DNA of 64,000 nucleotides. It comes from an uncultured cyanobacterium (GTDB lineage Bacteria > Cyanobacteriota > Cyanobacteriia > PCC-9006 > JAAUQQ01). The stretch spans positions 1,024,001-1,088,000 of the forward strand of contig OY970368.1 of NCBI GenBank assembly GCA_963718615.1, in the 5' to 3' direction. A program made the translations under genes and the position numbers. Shown one piece after another: positions 1 to 46,100 of the stretch; the stretch's first letter is position 1, and every line of letters starts with the position of its first letter. The notes beneath the pieces were generated by a model. That model saw nothing but the letters and a program-made list of their open reading frames with translations, made no database searches and was not told where the DNA came from.

Positions 1-1129
1 TAGGCAACGTGCTGCGCTCGGACTGCTGGCAGAGATAATCGTGAGCGGCATCTCGATCAAATTCCAAGGGTTGACCCTGGTCCATCAGGACGATATCTCC
101 TAAAACAATCTTCAGGTCCTCTTGATCAAACGCCACCCCAGCACGACCCGCAGCGGCAGCAATACGCCCCCAGTTGGGATCGCGACCAAAAATGGCGGAT
201 TTGAGCAGCGCTGAACCAGCGACGGTCCGGGCAATTTGTCGAGCAGCGGCATCGTCGGCGGTGCCAGAAACCTGGACTTCGATTAAGCAGGTAGCCCCTT
301 CGCCATCGCGGGCGATCGCCTGGGCCAAGTATTGACATACCGCCGTCAGCATTGCTTCGAGCTTCTCGGCTTCAGGACCAGGTTCCGTAATCGCAGGGGT
401 ACGGGATTGACCGTTAGCCAGAGCCATGAGCGAATCATTCGTACTGGTATCGCCATCAACGGTGATTTGATTAAAACTTCGGTCCGCCGCTCGGGTCAGC
501 ATCTCCTGCCAAAGGTGGGGGGAGACCGTGGCATCGCAGGTTACAAACGCCAGCATCGTCGCCATATTGGGATGGATCATCCCCGAACCCTTGGCAATGC
601 CACCAATCCGAACCGGGCGATCGCCAAACATCCCTTCTACAGCGATCGACTTGGTGACGAGATCCGTGGTGGCGATCGCCTGGGCCGCGTCATCGGAACC
701 GTCGTCCGTCAGGGCCTGAACAATTCGATCGATCCCCGTGCGCATGGGCTCCATGGGAATTTGACGCCCAATCACGCCGGTAGAAGCAATCAACACCGCA
801 GAATCCGGAATGCCTAGGGCCTGAGCCACCCGCTGCGCCGACTCTACAGTATTTGCCCATCCTTGGGTGCCGGTGCTAGCGTTGGCCTGCCCCGAATTGC
901 AGAGAATCGCCTGGGCCGCTGCCTTCTGCTTGAGCTGCTGGCGACAAAAATCAACACAGCCCGCACGAACATGGCTGGTGGTGAAGACCCCAGCGGCGAT
1001 CGCCTCCCCCTCCGAAACAATCAACGCCAGATCCGGCAAGCCCGAAGGCTTTAAACCCGCCACGATTCCAGCTGCCTGATATCCCTTAGGAGCGGTGACT
1101 CCCCCTGGAATGCTGTGCCAATCCGCCAT
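1..1129 (-). CDS. argJ: Bifunctional ornithine acetyltransferase/N-acetylglutamate synthase (3' end outside window)
   Basis: Manual minus-strand translation from ATG 1129: MADWHSIPGGVTAPKGYQAAG...ILCNSGQANA...ASTGVIG...IATTDLVTK...GGIAKGSGMIHPNMATML (ArgJ motifs). Absent from the ORF track because it runs off the window edge. Confidence 0.95.
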   Translation of the reverse strand, partial: MADWHSIPGGVTAPKGYQAAGIVAGLKPSGLPDLALIVSEGEAIAAGVFTTSHVRAGCVDFCRQQLKQKAAAQAILCNSGQANASTGTQGWANTVESAQRVAQALGIPDSAVLIASTGVIGRQIPMEPMRTGIDRIVQALTDDGSDDAAQAIATTDLVTKSIAVEGMFGDRPVRIGGIAKGSGMIHPNMATMLAFVTCDATVSPHLWQEMLTRAADRSFNQITVDGDTSTNDSLMALANGQSRTPAITEPGPEAEKLEAMLTAVCQYLAQAIARDGEGATCLIEVQVSGTADDAAARQIARTVAGSALLKSAIFGRDPNWGRIAAAAGRAGVAFDQEDLKIVLGDIVLMDQGQPLEFDRDAAHDYLCQQSERSTLP

Positions 1130-1332
1130 AGCCCCTTTCCAACCCATTTCTGAATGTTCGATATGTTCGATATAGCAGGAAAATCGGTTAAATGGCCTGA
1201 TTTTTCTGTTTGCCGGTTCTTTTGCCGGTTCCATTGTTACAGGTTTCCGGGGCAGATTGAGTACCAGGGAGGGCGGACAAACTTTTTTGCGATCCTTTCC
1301 GGAAGTATCATTAGGCACCAGTATAAGTGAAT

Positions 1333-1382
1333 GGTAGATGCACCCTGACTCAATCAAACCTCGGCCTTCGGTCGAGGTTTTT
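1333..1382 (+). ncRNA. NsiR1-like sRNA copy 1
   Basis: TCCGGA 1298-1303, TATAAG 1322-1327, GGTAGATGCACCCTGACTCA, hairpin AAACCTCGGCC-TTC-GGTCGAGGTTT with T-run. The start site is inferred. Confidence 0.8.
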
Positions 1383-1488
1383 CTTTGTAATTTGGGTATT
1401 GAAGCTATCAGGATGGGGAGGTGCGATCGCCCCAAACAAAAATTCTTTTAGTTTCCGGAAACGTCGTATCAATTCAGTATAAGTGAAT

Positions 1489-1540
1489 GGTAGATGCACC
1501 CTGACTCATTTAATCCCCAGCCTAGGCCGGGGATTTTTTT
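1489..1540 (+). ncRNA. NsiR1-like sRNA copy 2
   Basis: TCCGGA 1454-1459, same 5' core, hairpin AATCCCCAGCC-TA-GGCCGGGGATT with T-run. Confidence 0.8.
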
Positions 1541-1673
1541 ATGGCTTTTAATTTAGAGCAACGGCTCTTTGAATCAGCGCCTTAGACCAACATAGATTAA
1601 CCGTTCAACTGTCCCATAGAAAGAAAAGTTAGCTCAATTCCGGATGTGCCCTAAAGCACTCGTATAAGGGAAT

Positions 1674-1723
1674 GGTAGATGCACCCTGACTCAATTAAAC
1701 CTCGGCCTTCGGTCGAGGTTTTT
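1674..1723 (+). ncRNA. NsiR1-like sRNA copy 3
   Basis: TCCGGA 1639-1644, same 5' core, hairpin identical to copy 1. Confidence 0.8.
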
Positions 1724-1774
1724 CTTTTTTCTGATACTTTCCGGAACCGATCGAATGAGCCAGTATAAGTGAAT

Positions 1775-1832
1775 GGTAGATGCACCCTGACTCATTTAAT
1801 CCCCCGGCCACAAGTGGTTTTGGGGATTTTTT
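1775..1832 (+). ncRNA. NsiR1-like sRNA copy 4
   Basis: TCCGGA 1740-1745, same 5' core, longer hairpin AATCCCCCGGCCAC-AA-GTGGTTTTGGGGATT with T-run. Confidence 0.78.
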
Positions 1833-2031
1833 ATTGGCGCGATCGTAAGAAGTCAAAAAGGACTGGGGAAGGACTTAGGGTCGAGGCTTCAATATCTTTT
1901 TCAAACCTTTTCAGGCATAAATCTACTGGCGACTTGCTCCAGAATAAAATTCCTTGAGGATACCCAAAATCGCGAGCAAACTAACTGCAATTCTCTTCCG
2001 GAGACACCGTATCAATTCAGTATAAGTGAGT

Positions 2032-2083
2032 GGTAGATGCACCCTGACTCATTTAATCCCCGGCCTAGGCTGGGGATTTTTTT
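2032..2083 (+). ncRNA. NsiR1-like sRNA copy 5
   Basis: TCCGGA 1997-2002, same 5' core, hairpin AATCCCCGGCC-TA-GGCTGGGGATT with T-run. Confidence 0.8.
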
Positions 2084-2119
2084 GGGGACTATTCAAACCA
2101 CTAAATGGGTCACACTCGC

Positions 2120-5100
2120 TCAAAAGGGAACATCATCATCTTCGCCTTCAGCCTCTGTCGAACCCTCATCCGGTTCTAGCAGAATTTCCATGGAGGCTGC
2201 GGTGGCGATCGCACTCTCCGAATCCAGGCTTGCCATCCCCGCCACAAAACCATCATCCGTCACAATCTCTCCATTAAAAAACTGCGCCAAACTCTTCGCC
2301 GCCCGCATCAATTCATTCTCATCCCACGTGGGCCGCAGCGGTGCGACTGCCGCTAGCCTTGATTGATCCGATGTCCCATTGAACGTTGCTTCATTGAACG
2401 CCACCGCGTCGAGGGTCGAGCCCTGAACGCCAACTACCGTCTGAACCGCAGCGCGTGAGACCATCGCCTCAGGCTGGACGATCTCTGACTGGACGAGCGA
2501 CGACGCTGGAGGGGGCGTTAATTCCGGGGGCAGAGCCTGGGCGATCGCGGTGGGTTCATGAACCGGACGGGGGGGAGAAGCTGGGACGGGGGGCGCAGGC
2601 GCAGGCCGCGCAGGTGCTGGTTGCGGAGGTGCCAGGTGAGGAGGCGCAGACTGAGAAGACACCGATTGAGAAGACACCGATTGAGAAGGCGCAGTCTGGA
2701 CCATCCCTTCCGTCTCCACCGAAGGAATAACGGGCTCTAATTTAACTTTGATGGGTTGGCTCGCCACACGGGCAAAGGCGGCTTCAATGGCCGGTAGTTT
2801 GCCTTGAATATTGCCCATCCACTGGGCCGTAATCCCTACGATCGCTGCGGTGCCGGTAAATTTGAGCAACTGTCCTTGCTGCCGCATGAGCATTTGGGTG
2901 CTGCGATACTCGACATTGGCGATCGCCCGCTGCCAGATATCCTCTAAATCAAACTCAGACTGCGGCACGGAATGGGGCTGAGCCGCCTGCGGCACGGAAT
3001 AGGGCTGGGCCGCTGGGGGAGGTTCAACCGTGAGGGCAACCGCTGGATGAGACGCAGGTGCAGAAGAGAGGGATGAAGCGACTGGAACGGCAGGGATAGT
3101 TGCCGCCGCTGGCACCACAGATTGCTGCACAACTGTGGGCGGTGGCGGTGGCGCTGGGACAACTACAGGGGTTGCAGGCGTTGAAGAAACGGAAACAGGT
3201 GCCGCTGATGCAGCAAATCCCCCCGTAGATGGAGACACAACCGGTTGAGCTGACTGCATTGCTGAAGGCAAGAGCCCCATTAGGGTGACCTCCAGCCAGA
3301 GTCGAGGCTGTGTCGTATTCTTAATTTGGACTTCGCTACTCCGCAGATGCTGCTGTCCCCGCAGAATCGTCCCGAGGTCGAGGTGCTGGGCAAATTCGAT
3401 GAGCTGCTCCCAAGTGCTGGGTGTAATAGCAACTAGATCATTGCGCGTGGGTGCAGTTTTAGCAATGAGCAGATCTCGATAGAAGCTAGCGAGATTTTGT
3501 AGAACAATGAGGGGTTCACGGCCTCGGTTCATCAGATGACGGGCGCGATCGAGGACGGTTTCGGGATGGTTGGTGGCGATCGCCTCAACCAAACTAAACA
3601 AATCCCGCTCAGGCACAGCACCCACCAAATCCCAAACGGCATCAATGCTGACGGGCGGAGGCAGCAAGCTCAGTTGGTCCAGCAGACTTTCAGCATCCCG
3701 CAGCCCCCCTTGGGCAACCTGGGCAACCAGCGTCAGCGCTTCCGGTTCAATTTGAATGCCTTCGGCGGTCGCAATCATGCCCAAGTGATCCACCATGGAT
3801 TCAAGCGGAATCCGGCGGTAATCAAAACGCTGACAGCGGGAAATGATTGTGGGTAAGACTCGTTGGGGATCGGTAGTCGCCAGCACAAAGACGACGCGAT
3901 CGGGTGGTTCTTCTAGGGTTTTAAGTAGCGCATTGAACGCCGCACTACTGAGCATATGGCAATTATGCACCAAAAGACCATTAGCTACAAAATTGTGGTT
4001 ATCTTCAACCTCGATATCGTAGACCTGCTCGATTGTTGACCTCTCAACAGAAAGGACCTCCTCGAAACTTGTACTCCATTGAGGGAATTGCGTAGATTTG
4101 ATGGTCTCGCAACCATCTTCGTGCTGATTGAGCTCCCAAGGAGATGTAGTAATAGCGTTTTTGTGTGTTGGATCGCAAGTAAGACTTCGCTTTTGCTGTA
4201 TATCCCAAGCCCGAGAGCCAAGCTGCGACCAGCTCTGTTTCGGATTCTGAAAAGCCTTCTGTGTGGAATTGAATAGCGGGGCTACCTGCAGGTGTGATGG
4301 AGAGTGATCCGTCATCCATGTACCACCATGCTCTTCCCTCTGGAGTGATTCTATCCAGCCAATTCGGGGTGATCCGCTTGCATGTCCCCTCTGGCTTAAC
4401 CACACGGTAGATTTCACACAATTGGGGATGACAGGCGGTGCTACAGCACACAGATAGAGTGCCATATCCACGATTTGTGGCCAGCCGTATCTTGGGCCTG
4501 AGGATAGACAGTCGGTTGGCTTTGTGTTCCATCCATGCTTTTTGCTCTGCTCCGTGGGTCCATGCCAACCGTGGGAAACGGCTGTGGGCATTGGGATAGG
4601 AAATAGAGCCGTCGCCAAGTAGGGTGCCGTAAATGAGTCCTTGGATACAGGGAGAGAGATGGCCAGAACGTTCTGTGAAATTGTCCGTTCGTTTATCCCA
4701 AATTCCATGACCTTTTTTATAGGGATGTCTACCCCAATAGGAATTAATGCTCTGAATCCCTTTTCCCTTCTCTTGCAGAAATTTTGGGATTGCAAGTAGT
4801 TCTCCGCATCCACAGGCACAGAACGGTCGTAGTGATTCTGCTTGCCGAAGAATGGCTTGAAGATCGTAGTCCCGTTGGCCGTACTGATTTCCTCGAAATT
4901 GGTGCCCTGCGGAAAATCGACGCTCTCGCCCATCAACACCGAATTGGTAGATAAGCACCCCACATCCACAGGCACAGGGGATAGTATTCTCGTTTTTTCT
5001 TTTACGTCCTTTGCTGCTACCCATCCCTGATCGGTTCTGATGAGATGATTCCCTGTGCACTGAATTGTGCGGTGGGTGGTTTTAATGAAGAGTGTTTGGC

Positions 5101-5638
5101 GCTCACCCTGATCGAGCCAACGCACAACAGGCTTGTACTCCCATTCTTCTGAGGATTCGTTGTAGCTCAGGACTCGTTGACCCTGAAGCTGAGGATCATC
5201 GATCCTCACTAGCCCATCTTGGGTTTGCACCAAGGTATCGCCCGTCAGGCACTCGTCGATGACATAGACCTTAAACCGACACTGCACTGGTGCAAACTGG
5301 GCTTTCTCGATCAGCTCCCGGATATTGTCCACACCGGTATTGCTCGCCGCATCAATTTCAATCACGTCCAGCGCATTGCCCCGCACAATCGAGCGGCAGG
5401 CTTCGCAGGTGCCACAGGGCTGAGGCGTCGGGTGGTCGCCCGCTTGACAGTTGAGCGACTTGGCCAAAATCCGCGCGCTAGAGGTTTTTCCCGTGCCTCG
5501 GGGACCTGTGAACAGATAGGCCGGCGCGATGCGCTCTTGCAGGATAGCGTTCGTTAGCGTCGTTGCGATCGCCTCTTGACCCACCAGGTCCCGAAACGTC
5601 TGCGGTCGATATTTGTGGTGGAGCGGTTCGTAGGCCAT
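2120..5638 (-). CDS. dnaX: DNA polymerase III subunit gamma/tau, intein-containing
   Basis: MAYEPLHHKYRPQTF, Walker A GPRGTGKT, EIDAASNTG, IDE|intein|CHMLSSAAFNALLKTLEEPP, SRC motif, Pro/Ala-rich linker. Likely start ATG 5638 (ORF track extends to 5704). Confidence 0.97.
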   Translation of the reverse strand: MAYEPLHHKYRPQTFRDLVGQEAIATTLTNAILQERIAPAYLFTGPRGTGKTSSARILAKSLNCQAGDHPTPQPCGTCEACRSIVRGNALDVIEIDAASNTGVDNIRELIEKAQFAPVQCRFKVYVIDECLTGDTLVQTQDGLVRIDDPQLQGQRVLSYNESSEEWEYKPVVRWLDQGERQTLFIKTTHRTIQCTGNHLIRTDQGWVAAKDVKEKTRILSPVPVDVGCLSTNSVLMGESVDFPQGTNFEEISTANGTTIFKPFFGKQNHYDRSVPVDAENYLQSQNFCKRREKGFRALIPIGVDIPIKKVMEFGINERTISQNVLAISLPVSKDSFTAPYLATALFPIPMPTAVSHGWHGPTEQSKKHGWNTKPTDCLSSGPRYGWPQIVDMALYLCAVAPPVIPNCVKSTVWLSQRGHASGSPRIGWIESLQREEHGGTWMTDHSPSHLQVAPLFNSTQKAFQNPKQSWSQLGSRAWDIQQKRSLTCDPTHKNAITTSPWELNQHEDGCETIKSTQFPQWSTSFEEVLSVERSTIEQVYDIEVEDNHNFVANGLLVHNCHMLSSAAFNALLKTLEEPPDRVVFVLATTDPQRVLPTIISRCQRFDYRRIPLESMVDHLGMIATAEGIQIEPEALTLVAQVAQGGLRDAESLLDQLSLLPPPVSIDAVWDLVGAVPERDLFSLVEAIATNHPETVLDRARHLMNRGREPLIVLQNLASFYRDLLIAKTAPTRNDLVAITPSTWEQLIEFAQHLDLGTILRGQQHLRSSEVQIKNTTQPRLWLEVTLMGLLPSAMQSAQPVVSPSTGGFAASAAPVSVSSTPATPVVVPAPPPPPTVVQQSVVPAAATIPAVPVASSLSSAPASHPAVALTVEPPPAAQPYSVPQAAQPHSVPQSEFDLEDIWQRAIANVEYRSTQMLMRQQGQLLKFTGTAAIVGITAQWMGNIQGKLPAIEAAFARVASQPIKVKLEPVIPSVETEGMVQTAPSQSVSSQSVSSQSAPPHLAPPQPAPARPAPAPPVPASPPRPVHEPTAIAQALPPELTPPPASSLVQSEIVQPEAMVSRAAVQTVVGVQGSTLDAVAFNEATFNGTSDQSRLAAVAPLRPTWDENELMRAAKSLAQFFNGEIVTDDGFVAGMASLDSESAIATAASMEILLEPDEGSTEAEGEDDDVPF
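3962..5251 (-). mobile_element. DnaX intein, 430 aa
   Basis: Starts CLTGDTLV after VIDE, has block B TIQCTGNHLI, and ends VYDIEVEDNHNFVANGLLVHN followed by Cys+1. 1290 nt. Confidence 0.95.
4044..5024 (-). CDS. LAGLIDADG-type homing endonuclease overprinted in an alternative frame within the intein
   Basis: Uninterrupted ORF (GTG 5060 or ATG 5024) with two CACGCG motifs, LIYGTLLGDGSI and AWWYMDDGSL LAGLIDADG-like motifs, and C-terminal SMEYK. Confidence 0.85.
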   Translation of the reverse strand: MGSSKGRKRKNENTIPCACGCGVLIYQFGVDGRERRFSAGHQFRGNQYGQRDYDLQAILRQAESLRPFCACGCGELLAIPKFLQEKGKGIQSINSYWGRHPYKKGHGIWDKRTDNFTERSGHLSPCIQGLIYGTLLGDGSISYPNAHSRFPRLAWTHGAEQKAWMEHKANRLSILRPKIRLATNRGYGTLSVCCSTACHPQLCEIYRVVKPEGTCKRITPNWLDRITPEGRAWWYMDDGSLSITPAGSPAIQFHTEGFSESETELVAAWLSGLGYTAKAKSYLRSNTQKRYYYISLGAQSARRWLRDHQIYAIPSMEYKFRGGPFC

Positions 5639-5727
5639 GACATCCGAGCATCTTCCTTCATCACTATAAGCAATGGAAGAAAAACTTCGGCAAGCGAGTC
5701 GCAAGCCTTACAAATCCTCAACTTCCA

Positions 5728-43117: not shown

Positions 43118-46100
43118 CTACCAGGGATTGCCCACCAGCGTAAACGCCGCCCAAAAATAGGGATGGGAAAGGTCGCGATCGCCAATATCTTCCGCCACCC
43201 GTTCCGTCAAGGGAATCGATTTCTGCTCACTTTGTAAATCGTTTTGTAAAATGCCTTGGCTGATCGTGACCTGTTGATGGAGCATGGCGATCTGGGCCTG
43301 ACGCAGGGCTTCTGCCTTCACCGGCACCTTGCGCAACTGTTCATAAAACTGGGTGATCAAAGCTAAGGTTCCGGCATCGCTCACATACCACAAACTGCCC
43401 AAGGCTGATTTGACCCCCGACTCGATGGCCAAACCCGCAAAGCCCAATTCAGCATTTTTATCCCCCAGGGCCGTTCGACAGGCACTTAACACCAGCAGTT
43501 CTACCGGTGGATTGCCAAGGCCCAAATTGCGCAACTGATTCACCTGGAGTTTTTGATCCCACAATTGGATATAGGATTGATCCACTTTTCCAGCTCGAAA
43601 CTCGCCATGGGTCGCCAAATGCACAATGCCATAGGGTTGTTGCTGCCGCGCTTGGGTCAAGTTTTTCAGCGTAAACTGATCATTGAGAAAAGACTTGCCT
43701 TGCCACAATCTTTGGGTCAACACGGACAGCTCAGTTTCCACTGCGGGTAAGTCAGATTTTGCATCAAATTCCGATGCCCCCATGGCCAAAATCTCTGATT
43801 TACGAACATCCACATAGCGCGTATCCGCCAGACTCAAGCTGGGCATGAGGCCCAGGCTATAGCGCTCCACGAGGAACTGGTTGCCATCATGGAGAGCTGC
43901 CATGGGGAGCGATCGCAATCCCGCATCCAAGATAAAGCTAAGGTTATCAATCTCCCGAATTTGGAGTTCACCCTCAATGGGCTCAATCAGCAGTTTATAT
44001 AATGCCTGAGCTGGTTTTAGATAGCTTTTGCTCCAAAGCTTGCGGGGATCTGTCACTTCTCGACGGAAGCGATCGGCCAATTGGATCACGTCTTTACGCA
44101 TCACTGACAAGCGTTTTCGTACGGCTGCACCATCGGGCATGACCACCAGTAGTTCTAGCTCATCGGTCTCATTTTCGCTCAAATTTACCGTATCCGTAGC
44201 CCCTTGAAAATATTGTTCCAAGGCATCTGAAAAATGCGCTTCTCGCTGGGCAAAATCTGGTGACTGGCGCATTGTCGCAGGCACAAATTGAATATAAACC
44301 AACGCCGGTTTAACGCCAGCCGCAGCCTCCACACGATTGAGAATTGTTGCTGCTTCAGCCACTGTTTCAATCCGTCGCTCATAGCCTTCAAAGGGTCTAG
44401 CATAGGCAACTGAGTTGGTGCTGTTTTCCCCTGTCTCGCTGCCCTGGGTTTCATGCTCAACAGCAGCATTCGAACTCAGGGCATCCAGTAAATCCATGGG
44501 GATTTTCAACACAGAATCCGGTGAATTGAGAGGAAGCTCGGGCTCTGGAGAAGGCTCAGGACCTGGAGGAGGCTCGGGTCTGGGAGAAGGCTCGGGTTTG
44601 GGAGTCGGCTCAGGCTCTGGAGAAGGTTCGGGCTTGGGAGTTGGCTCGGGTTTGGGAGTAGGATCTATAGGCCCAGGTTCTCCCACTTCAGGGTTAACGG
44701 TCAAGCGGTAGGCGATCGCCTCCGAACTCGACACCCCATCCGTTGCCACGATCGAAAAGGCATTGATTGGCCCATTGCTCACCGCTGTGGGCTGATAGGT
44801 TAAAGGCGTTCCCGGTTGCCAGATATCACCATTTTTGAGCAAGCGATCGCCTTGACGCAACTCTCCGCCAGCAATGCCTTGAATTTGCAATCGCAACTGA
44901 TCCTGATTGACATCCGTAAACAGCGTGTCCGGGGTGGGCAGGGTAATGATTAGCGTATCCGCGACGGTGATGTCGTTGGCCTCTAGGCCCTGCACCAATG
45001 CCTGGGGCGGTGTATTGTCTGACAGAATGGCGATCGCCCCCGGCAATCCCGGCGTCACCCCTCCTTCGGGCAAAACCGAAAACCGTCCCCCAGTCAGTTG
45101 GTTCTCGACCTGATCGGCTGTGCCTGCTCGAATAGCGCCTCGGGTGCCGTTAGGGCTCGCTTGGCCTACGGTTAAGGGCGTATTGGTGGCCCCGCCGCTG
45201 TGACGCAGAGACACTTGACCACCGGTGACGGAGCCGACGGTAGGAGAATCCTCAAGATTCAAAACCTCTCCCAGAACGACATTACTCTCCGTGGCCGCCA
45301 TGCGCAAAACGGACGCCTGGGCATTGAGGGTGGTATTGGGCGGATTGTTCATCTCCGTGTCCGGATCAACGGCGGGTAACAGACCCTGCCCCTGGATCGT
45401 GCCTCCCGAGACTACGGTGACATCTCCGGCTTTTGCCGTTGCAACGGATTGCCCGTCGCTACTGGAGTCTAAGGCTCGGGCGGAGGTGTCGAGGGTGGAA
45501 AATTCGACGGTTTGATTTAACTCAGGGGCTGTAATCCCAACGGTTCCAGCAATGGCCGTCAGACTCCCGGCCCCCACAGCAAAGGTTGTCGCATTGATGT
45601 CTCCGGATTGAACGCGATCGCCCGTTAGCTGAACATTACCAGCCTGAGCCTGCACCGAGCCATTGCCCACCCCACTCCGGGCTGTGGTGCGAATGGACTC
45701 GACGGTGATGCCCCCATTCTCGTTGGCGGCTCCAGCGGTTGGATTAGAGGACAGCGTGACATTGCCCGCCGTCACCTGGGAGGTTTTGCCCGCAGACCCC
45801 AAAACCGACGTCGTTAGGGTCTTAGCGCTAATGTCTGAGCCTGCGGTGGTCAACTGCACATCGCCACCCGTTAGAGACACGGTTTCAAAGGCGATCGCCG
45901 AGTTGGCTGAGGCGTCTATCGTTTGAGCCCCGATGGGGCTGTTGCTTCCGGTTGTCGTTAACTGAATGGGTCCGGCCTGGGCCGTAATCCGATTCCCCCC
46001 TCGGTTGTTCACCCTACTGGACAGATCGCCCACATTCAAATCCCCCGATGTCGTTAGCTGAATCGCCCCTCCCGCTGCTTCCACCGTTGCAAAGATAGCT

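Follow-up and report, generated by a model that had tools for sequence, protein, structure and literature searches.

A tandem array of five short units lies between argJ and dnaX in the genome of an uncultured cyanobacterium (GenBank assembly GCA_963718615.1), within the 64,000-nt stretch of contig OY970368.1, positions 1,024,001 to 1,088,000, that we analyzed and call the window. We read the array, with a probability of about 0.8, as five separately transcribed small RNA (sRNA) genes of the NsiR1 family, each with its own promoter of the sigma-HetZ type, in a host that carries HetR and nitrogenase and very probably lacks heterocysts. NsiR1 has been called heterocyst-specific and reported from heterocyst-formers, as far as the available text of the sources goes (PMC6596454, PMC4030482). 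As judged from sequence, the array units are NsiR1-family genes, and their host very probably stands outside the heterocyst-formers. The range of the family coincides with that of HetR, and the array-bearing genome is ordinary in having it.

Anatomy of the array

The array was recognized by the 20-mer GGTAGATGCACCCTGACTCA, which occurs on the plus strand in five exact copies in the whole window (at 1333, 1489, 1674, 1775 and 2032) and has no match in 100 dinucleotide-preserving shuffles of it. Exactly 35 nt ahead of each copy stands TCCGGA, and GTATAAG follows at a constant offset in all five units (Table 1). The 16-nt spacers between the promoter boxes vary among units, with the exception of CGTATCAATTC, common to units 2 and 5. 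The predicted RNAs, 54 to 61 nt long, share the 5′ sequence UGGUAGAUGCACCCUGA without a single change and end in a Rho-independent terminator. ViennaRNA folds a 3′ hairpin followed by a T run in five of five units, the energy of the entire RNA ranging from −14.7 to −18.7 kcal/mol, and a simple terminator scan flags three of them (1, 3 and 5). Between the 5′ box and the terminator lies a linker of 8 to 10 nt in two versions, A in copies 1 and 3 and B in copies 2, 4 and 5, and the terminator versions split likewise.

The original prediction, drawn from the letters of the window, had described the five units at these positions with an invariant TCCGGA 35 nt upstream, their location between argJ and dnaX, a terminator for each unit, and the conservation of motifs and spacing but not of the intervening sequence. 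All of this was borne out, the spacer shared by units 2 and 5 excepted. The same holds for its proposals of an NsiR1-like identity and of DIF1-type promoters, found in all five units, and for its remark that hetF is not a neighbor. The TATAAG box that it took as −10-like is present at a fixed place in all five units, but the true −10 more likely lies in an overlapping element (see below).

A reading of the box ATG as the start of a small open reading frame (ORF) was rejected, as the frame lengths differ between copies and no fitting ribosome-binding site precedes them; the 109-residue ORF that opens from the box ATG at 2037–2366 is read-through into the antisense of dnaX.

Table 1. Promoter elements, sRNA genes and flanking genes of the array (positions within the window).
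Feature	Position	Strand	Remarks
Unit 1, −35 element TCCGGA (DIF1 motif)	1298..1303	+	at −35..−30 relative to G1333
Unit 1, −10 element AGTA, putative sigma-HetZ type (−13..−10)	1320..1323	+	overlaps TATAAG
NsiR1 copy 1	1332..1385	+	linker subtype A CAAUCAAA; terminator stem 1356–1380; Rfam RF02399 43.8 bits
Unit 2, −35 TCCGGA	1454..1459	+	motif position
Unit 2, −10 AGTA	1476..1479	+	motif position
NsiR1 copy 2	1488..1541	+	linker subtype B CAUUUAAU; Rfam 51.3 bits; ViennaRNA fold
Unit 3, −35 TCCGGA	1639..1644	+	motif position
Unit 3, −10 CGTA	1661..1664	+	C at −13
NsiR1 copy 3	1673..1726	+	subtype A; terminator stem 1697–1721; Rfam 45.0 bits
Unit 4, −35 TCCGGA	1740..1745	+	begins 14 nt past the end of copy 3
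Unit 4, −10 AGTA	1762..1765	+	motif position
NsiR1 copy 4	1774..1834	+	subtype B; terminator longer, imperfect; Rfam 48.4 bits; ViennaRNA fold
Unit 5, −35 TCCGGA	1997..2002	+	motif position
Unit 5, −10 AGTA	2019..2022	+	motif position
NsiR1 copy 5	2031..2084	+	subtype B; terminator stem 2055–2078; Rfam 56.1 bits
argJ	2..1129	−	cut by window start; Pfam ArgJ PF01960, E 1.8e-130; transcribed away from the array
dnaX, intein-containing	2120..5704	−	Pfam DNA_pol3_delta2, DNA_pol3_gamma3, Intein_splicing; 3′ end toward array end

NsiR1 family membership and copies in the genome

Membership was judged by the Rfam covariance model RF02399 (NsiR1) with its gathering score of 39 bits, which all five units exceed (Table 1). 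The complete 6.10-Mb genome holds seven NsiR1 genes, namely the array and two solo copies (C1:705150-705201 and C1:3319963-3320018), both with TCCGG(A/C) at the same distance as in the array. All three NsiR1 loci (argJ/dnaX, between lgt and cobM, and downstream of a tamB-like gene) are syntenic in relatives of the family, across three genera: arrays stand beside the 3′ end of dnaX at five loci of relatives, the solo copy between lgt and cobM recurs at six, and the one downstream of the tamB-like gene at two. When 24 copies from this and other genomes were aligned, the 5′ box was invariant and seven of the eight terminator stem pairs had changed on both sides; an invariant box combined with two-sided stem changes marks an RNA gene rather than a DNA repeat. 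A blastn search of unit 5 against PLSDB returned one chance match only, to a Vibrio plasmid (E = 3).

The array closely resembles NsiR1 of Nostoc/Anabaena sp. PCC 7120, of which the available portions of PMC9045159 and PMC4030482 describe 12 tandem copies upstream of hetF. Shared features are an RNA of about 55 to 60 nt that begins with this 5′ box and ends in a terminator, copies in tandem under their own TCCGGA −35 promoters, and transcription of the array away from the neighboring gene. Sibling copies with differing linkers are common to both, the two versions of the array resembling NsiR1.1 and NsiR1.4 of Nostoc (PMC9045159). The systems differ in copy number (five plus two solo copies here versus 12), in neighbors (argJ and dnaX, not hetF), in the linker (CUCA(A/U)U... 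here, UAUAAAU there) and in the host, which here belongs to another order and very probably has no heterocysts; in addition, no complementarity to the local hetF and hetP-like leaders was detected here. For Nostocales, NsiR1 is further described as induced upon nitrogen step-down, in a HetR- and NtcA-dependent way and in differentiating cells only. The literature yielded a sole exception to the restriction of NsiR1 to heterocyst-formers, the 57-nt "NsiR1-like" sRNA RNA162 of Limnospira indica PCC 8005 (PMC8400943). It likewise represents an NsiR1-family RNA in a non-heterocystous, hetR-bearing filamentous cyanobacterium, but the available part of that source presents one annotated gene and an expression change under radiation, with no array, promoter analysis or phylogenetic survey reported there.

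One further site in the genome, C1:742687-742745, with the box on the minus strand, carries a box-like remnant, GAAUGAAUGGUAGAUGC-CCCUG, with no clear promoter or terminator, and lies across the 5′ leader of an ORF of 487 residues on the opposite strand. It may be an NsiR1 copy in decay or else a target site for strong antisense pairing (−36 kcal/mol).

Promoters of the sigma-HetZ type

HetZ has recently been described as a sigma factor of the extracytoplasmic function (ECF) type that recognizes DIF1 promoters with the consensus TCCGGA-N16-17-TGNA-N7-9-T(start), where the T at −13 is replaceable by A and partly by G or C (PMC13342950, 2026, in the available part of the text). The array promoters read TCCGGA-N16-(A/C)GTA-N8-T in five of five units, with AGTA in four and CGTA in unit 3, and fit the class consensus given the tolerated A and the partly tolerated C. 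This match implies that the TATAAG box overlaps the true −10, which is more likely AGTA/CGTA at −13 to −10, and that the RNA would be expected to start at the T/G before GUAGAUGC.

The architecture recurs beyond the array. Among 88 distinct copies, which were chosen by the exact 16-nt box and about 60 of which come from the window's own family and are not independent, the −35 hexamer matches fully in 44, deviates by one base in 42 (TCCTGA, TCCGGG, TCCGGT and others) and by more in 2, and nG(T/A)A occupies −13 to −10 in 85. The sigma-HetZ promoters of hetR, patS, patX, patU, sigC and hep genes show the same layout of TCCGGA at −35 to −30, a 16- to 17-nt spacer and a TGnA-type element at −13 to −10, according to PMC7377430 and the portion of PMC13342950 available, and both HetZ and HetR are encoded in the window's genome. 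The differences are the A or C at −13 and the fact that the sigma factor was characterized in another organism, being known here from its gene. Dataset S2 of PMC13342950 comprises 546 sigma-HetZ promoters and may include those of nsiR1. A second parallel is patX-hetR of Leptolyngbya sp. BL0902, a non-heterocystous filament with hetR and hetZ-patU, for which a DIF1-type promoter has been predicted (PMC11298460); the window's genome also has a PatX-like ORF ahead of hetR with TCCTGA upstream. The BL0902 promoter serves a protein-coding target, not an sRNA, and NsiR is mentioned 0 times in that paper.

Components of the HetR circuit

The inventory of hetR, hetF, patX and nif genes that the original prediction had proposed turned up HetR, HetF, a PatX-like ORF and nifD/K/EN. 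HetR scores 523.2 bits on NF009718 (cut-off 489). Directly upstream of hetR lies a 46-residue ORF with a hydrophobic start, the ending ...HRGSGRK and TCCTGA 66 nt before it, which appears PatX-like by the criteria quoted in PMC11298460. HetZ scores 625.2 bits on NF037963 (cut-off 550). A HetZ-related protein 2 reaches 577 bits (cut-off 400), and a third HetZ-like gene falls just below its cut-off. Downstream of hetZ, a co-directional ORF of 376 residues that belongs to no known family is possibly PatU. The genome also holds one HetP-family gene, a nifD/nifK/nifEN cluster and a HetF ortholog (C1:3077973-3080390) with 56% identity over its N-terminal 411 aa to a HetF that scores 1452 bits on NF045509. 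This ortholog lies about 240 kb from the nearest NsiR1 copy (C1:3319963), so that the array is not upstream of hetF. With HetR, the PatX-like ORF, HetZ, the HetP-family protein and HetF encoded, all components that the Nostoc model needs for firing a DIF1 promoter are present.

The hetZ gene was located via NCBIfam accessions, one of which, NF037967, was discarded as an unrelated family. Searching with a HetR-site motif did not find the gene.

A HetR paralog scores 466 bits on NF009718, just under the cut-off. At its locus (C1:368811, plus strand), a perfect-armed palindrome, TGAGGGGGGTCATCCCCCTCA, stands 306 nt upstream of the longest ORF start, with a divergent 172-residue ORF beyond; the palindrome suggests that HetR may control its own paralog.

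NsiR1 follows HetR across the class

The distribution was surveyed in 151 genomes, sampled evenly over 36 families of the class and each at least 90% complete; as related genomes are not independent, we offer no statistic. NsiR1 was found in 83 genomes and HetR_C in 82: both in 81, neither in 67, NsiR1 only in 2 (G014 and G018) and HetR only in 1 (G058), so that 81 of the 82 HetR-positive genomes have NsiR1. At the family level, the two are all-or-none in nearly every family. A set of 41 relatives from 27 families gave the same picture, with NsiR1 over the cut-off in 28, HetR_C in 25, and NsiR1 in all 25 HetR-positive genomes. G014 (93% complete) and G018 (99%) carry NsiR1 over the cut-off with no HetR detected by the Pfam Hood domain or by a HetR protein query; either their hetR is unassembled or the sRNAs are maintained in its absence.

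NsiR1 does not track nitrogenase. Among the 41 relatives, nifD is over the cut-off in 12 of 28 NsiR1-positive and 4 of 13 NsiR1-negative genomes, and the 16 NsiR1-positive relatives without nifD over the cut-off fall into eight families. Since genomes without nitrogenase cannot use heterocysts for their purpose, NsiR1 is widespread outside heterocyst-formers.

These counts change the standing of the original prediction, which had seen in the array either an ancestral or a repurposed circuit and, by implication, an oddity of one genome. The latter does not hold, as NsiR1 with the same promoter occurs in 83 of the 151 genomes, and "ancestral" fits its near-constant company with HetR better than "repurposed." That the number of copies governs the dosage, a further suggestion of the original prediction, stands as a conjecture. 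The novelty is also reduced: DIF1 promoters before patX in HetR-bearing non-heterocystous species have been published (PMC11298460, PMC7761841), and the Limnospira NsiR1-like RNA is likewise in print. NsiR1 outside heterocyst-formers may moreover already be described in Ionescu 2010, Brenes-Alvarez 2020, Du 2012, Videau 2014 or Mitschke 2011, to which our literature check did not extend. The array seems unusual because the literature has a gap here, not because this genome is peculiar.

Further sRNA classes share the box

In G058, the HetR-positive genome that seemed to lack NsiR1, three genes carry the box xGUAGAUGCACCCUGAUGAUCG... together with a terminator, with no TCCGGA upstream. Their promoter consists of the palindrome GGGG-N5-CCCC and, about 20 nt further on, a sigma-70-like −10. 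As a sequence, the palindrome resembles a HetR site, the core of which is GGG-N5-CCC (PMC7377430), and we refer to these genes as the HetR-box class. The window's genome contains one member (C1:348762-348820, minus strand, box GUAGAUGCACCCUGAUGAUCGGGGGAGUC... with terminator) and a third paralog at C1:3653792 (minus strand), UAGAUGCACCCUGAGUUGA with a terminator, under an ordinary TTGCCA-N17-CATAAT promoter and with 28 bits for Rfam NsiR1. A 14-nt box, TAGATGCACCCTGA, thus has nine occurrences in this genome under three promoter types. Genes of the second and third classes score 26 to 29 bits for NsiR1, under the cut-off, and match no other Rfam family.

A composite pattern of the palindrome, 26 to 33 nt and the box occurs in 74 of the 151 genomes, of which 73 belong to the 82 HetR-positive and 1 to the 69 HetR-negative genomes; the reversed control pattern matched nowhere in the 151. 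The class was found in 20 of the 41 relatives, and G018, which gave no HetR match, carries it too. It possibly corresponds to NsiR2 of Mitschke 2011, in which case a prior description may exist in a source outside our literature check; an RNA of that name appears in PMC6316151.

Members of this class recur at argJ. At 4 of 23 argJ loci from other families (G016, G029, G031 and G033), a HetR-box sRNA lies co-directionally 130 to 280 nt upstream of argJ, in G033 as four tandem copies; in G143 and G153 it stands between gatB and argJ, and the order gatB-sRNA-argJ is frequent. In the window's own family, it is the DIF1-type array that occupies the region upstream of argJ, in the opposite orientation. 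Box-sharing sRNAs and argJ thus appear recurrently linked across several unrelated families.

Neighboring genes

The DnaX ORF comprises 1194 residues, with an intein (Intein_splicing, PT-HINT, Hint; about residues 151–581) inside the AAA+ domain and a STICHEL-like DnaA_N-like domain in the C-terminal region. Elsewhere in the window, a match to the CHAT domain (caspase-like) lies at about 43127–44017 on the minus strand, one of 50 such matches in the 6.1-Mb genome, many in open frames of 800 to 1900 residues.

Discussion

If the Nostoc model applies, active HetR would switch on hetZ, and sigma-HetZ would then fire all five promoters of the array, and seven in the genome, in a burst of sibling sRNAs that would pair through box and linker with mRNAs and lower their translation. 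When and in which cells the sRNAs are made, whether they depend on HetR and HetZ, and what they target are all inferred from that analogy.

Several observations weigh against our interpretation of the array. The base at −13 departs from the consensus T, being A or C. Three genomes (G014, G018 and G058) break the co-occurrence of NsiR1 and HetR. The absence of heterocysts is an inference from the record titles of relatives, G+C content, nif pattern and synteny, not an observation. The public sequencing runs do not reveal a small RNA from the array: of six listed, three (soil, wastewater and wetland metagenomes or metatranscriptomes, as contigs) held part of the window at small shares (0.07 to 0.12), and the four short contigs, placed at the window edges with none spanning an sRNA, are uninformative on transcription. 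Finally, a scan of duplex energies against the leaders of hetF, patX, hetR, the hetR paralog and the HetP-family gene revealed no complementarity above background. These leaders reached −12 to −21 kcal/mol, and random genomic windows had a mean of −17.9 and a 5th percentile of −22.3; being within background, they give no evident sign that the Nostoc targets are conserved. The scan considered duplex energy only and is crude.

The array might instead exert its main effect in cis, on argJ, with copy 1 and possibly further copies being antisense to a long argJ 5′ leader or sharing its regulatory region, which would couple arginine synthesis to the state of HetR and HetZ. The geometry is that of Nostoc hetF, where the array lies upstream in the opposite direction and NsiR1.1 is antisense to the hetF leader (PMC9045159 and bioRxiv 10.1101/2020.09.09.290692, in their available portions); because the array is oriented to argJ as the Nostoc array is to hetF, an antisense effect on argJ is possible. 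The argJ gene is divergent and its start codon lies 204 nt from G1333, at the 5′ box of copy 1, so that overlap with the argJ leader depends on where argJ transcription starts. At all seven argJ loci of the family, NsiR1 genes, as one copy or as an array, stand divergently no more than 1.5 kb from argJ, and the co-directional HetR-box sRNAs upstream of argJ in other families point the same way. No DIF1-type copy, however, was found at any of the 23 argJ loci of other families, the 169 nt between the argJ start codon and the first TCCGGA leave room for argJ's own promoter, and the argJ mRNAs of 29 genomes contain no conserved site for pairing with the box. Most copies, here and elsewhere, are moreover not at argJ. 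We consider a predominantly cis role at argJ unlikely, though not to be dismissed.

The box itself could be chiefly an element for binding or titrating a protein, for example the OB-fold RNA-binding PatR, rather than an antisense seed, with copy number setting the capacity of the sponge. This would suit the invariance of the 16-nt box in 88 of 88 copies (although these were chosen by the box), the 14 nt of it shared with two further promoter classes in the genome, and the failure to find a conserved complementary site. In Nostoc, NsiR1 is enriched in cross-linking immunoprecipitation sequencing (CLIP-seq) of PatR, which is widely conserved beyond heterocyst-formers (PMC11797042, available part). 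A genome-wide seed-and-duplex scan returned self-antisense matches, followed by a few sites at −29 to −37 kcal/mol, among them, in this one genome, the 5′ leader of a glycosyltransferase-like gene (C1:2343116-2343174). Two other sites, at C1:348.7 kb and C1:3653.8 kb, were rejected as targets because both are further box-sharing sRNA genes on the other strand. No target was identified among the scanned leaders, the genome-wide sites or the argJ mRNAs of the 29 genomes. The crudeness of a scan by duplex energy blunts this last argument, however, and base pairing is how NsiR1 represses alr3234 and hetF in Nostoc, as reporter assays and footprinting demonstrate in the accessible portion of PMC9045159. 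We would give a protein-binding box decidedly poor odds as the primary function.

The genes of the circuit might also indicate that the host is a heterocyst-former in which a textbook NsiR1 array has merely moved away from hetF. HetR, the PatX-like ORF, HetZ, the HetP-family gene, HetF and the nifD/nifK/nifEN cluster are all there, and het and nif genes were the heterocyst-related markers that the analysis covered. The same het genes are nevertheless reported in non-heterocystous filamentous cyanobacteria (PMC11298460, PMC7377430). The only carriers found of a family-specific 20-mer were 26 contigs from seven metagenome-assembled genomes (MAGs), all titled Synechococcales cyanobacterium or uncultured Pseudanabaenaceae cyanobacterium. 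No genome outside the host's family is labeled closer than "same class," and the Nostocaceae-like genomes (f32) therefore belong to a different order. One of these, G110, has a bona fide hetF (NF045509, 1452 bits) divergent from an NsiR1 array, the classical Nostocales arrangement, and a G+C content of 38.8% at that locus versus 52.3% for the window's genome. In the seven other genomes of the family (62 to 93% complete), nifD was over the cut-off in none. Thus, the host has very little chance of being a heterocyst-former and, in agreement with the original impression of its genome, is very probably a non-heterocystous diazotroph of filamentous type.

That the copies are decaying relics or a selfish repeat without present function is barely credible: the lack of expression evidence and the terminator-less remnant at C1:742.7 kb speak for it, but spacers and loops diverge around promoter boxes, spacing, a 5′ box and terminator pairing that stay conserved, orthologous loci exist in three genera of the family, 81 of 82 HetR-positive sampled genomes have NsiR1, and the array sequence showed neither terminal inverted repeats nor target duplications.

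Five NsiR1 genes under sigma-HetZ promoters, then, remain our interpretation of the array. The window itself is a modest result, a typical member of a widespread family, and the interest comes mostly from the phylogenetic result and the second promoter class. We put at somewhat short of even odds a scheme in which RNAs with the box (U)AGAUGCACCCUGA are an ancestral output of HetR and HetZ in essentially all HetR-bearing cyanobacteria, most of them without heterocysts. Two promoter tiers would drive them, a low-copy class with a HetR-site-like palindrome about 30 nt ahead of a sigma-70-like −10, often upstream of argJ and not in Rfam, and the multi-copy sigma-HetZ/DIF1 class that is NsiR1. The "heterocyst-specific" sRNA would then predate heterocysts.

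The role of HetR, PatX and HetZ in non-heterocystous filaments has been called "a mystery" (PMC11298460). In at least 20 families, some lineages without nitrogenase among them, complete NsiR1 genes with apparently intact sigma-HetZ promoters accompany HetR. For the field, this would identify a conserved downstream output of the HetR circuit and supply a 70-nt promoter as a possible reporter of the time and the cells in which that circuit is active in non-heterocystous species. If the scheme is true, the promoters of box RNAs would be ready-made reporters of a patterned or stress-induced cell state under HetR in such filaments. The HetR-box class and its recurrent linkage to argJ hint at a tie of the circuit to arginine metabolism. 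The phylogenetic result and the second promoter class would thus open the question of what the HetR circuit does in non-heterocystous cyanobacteria to direct testing.

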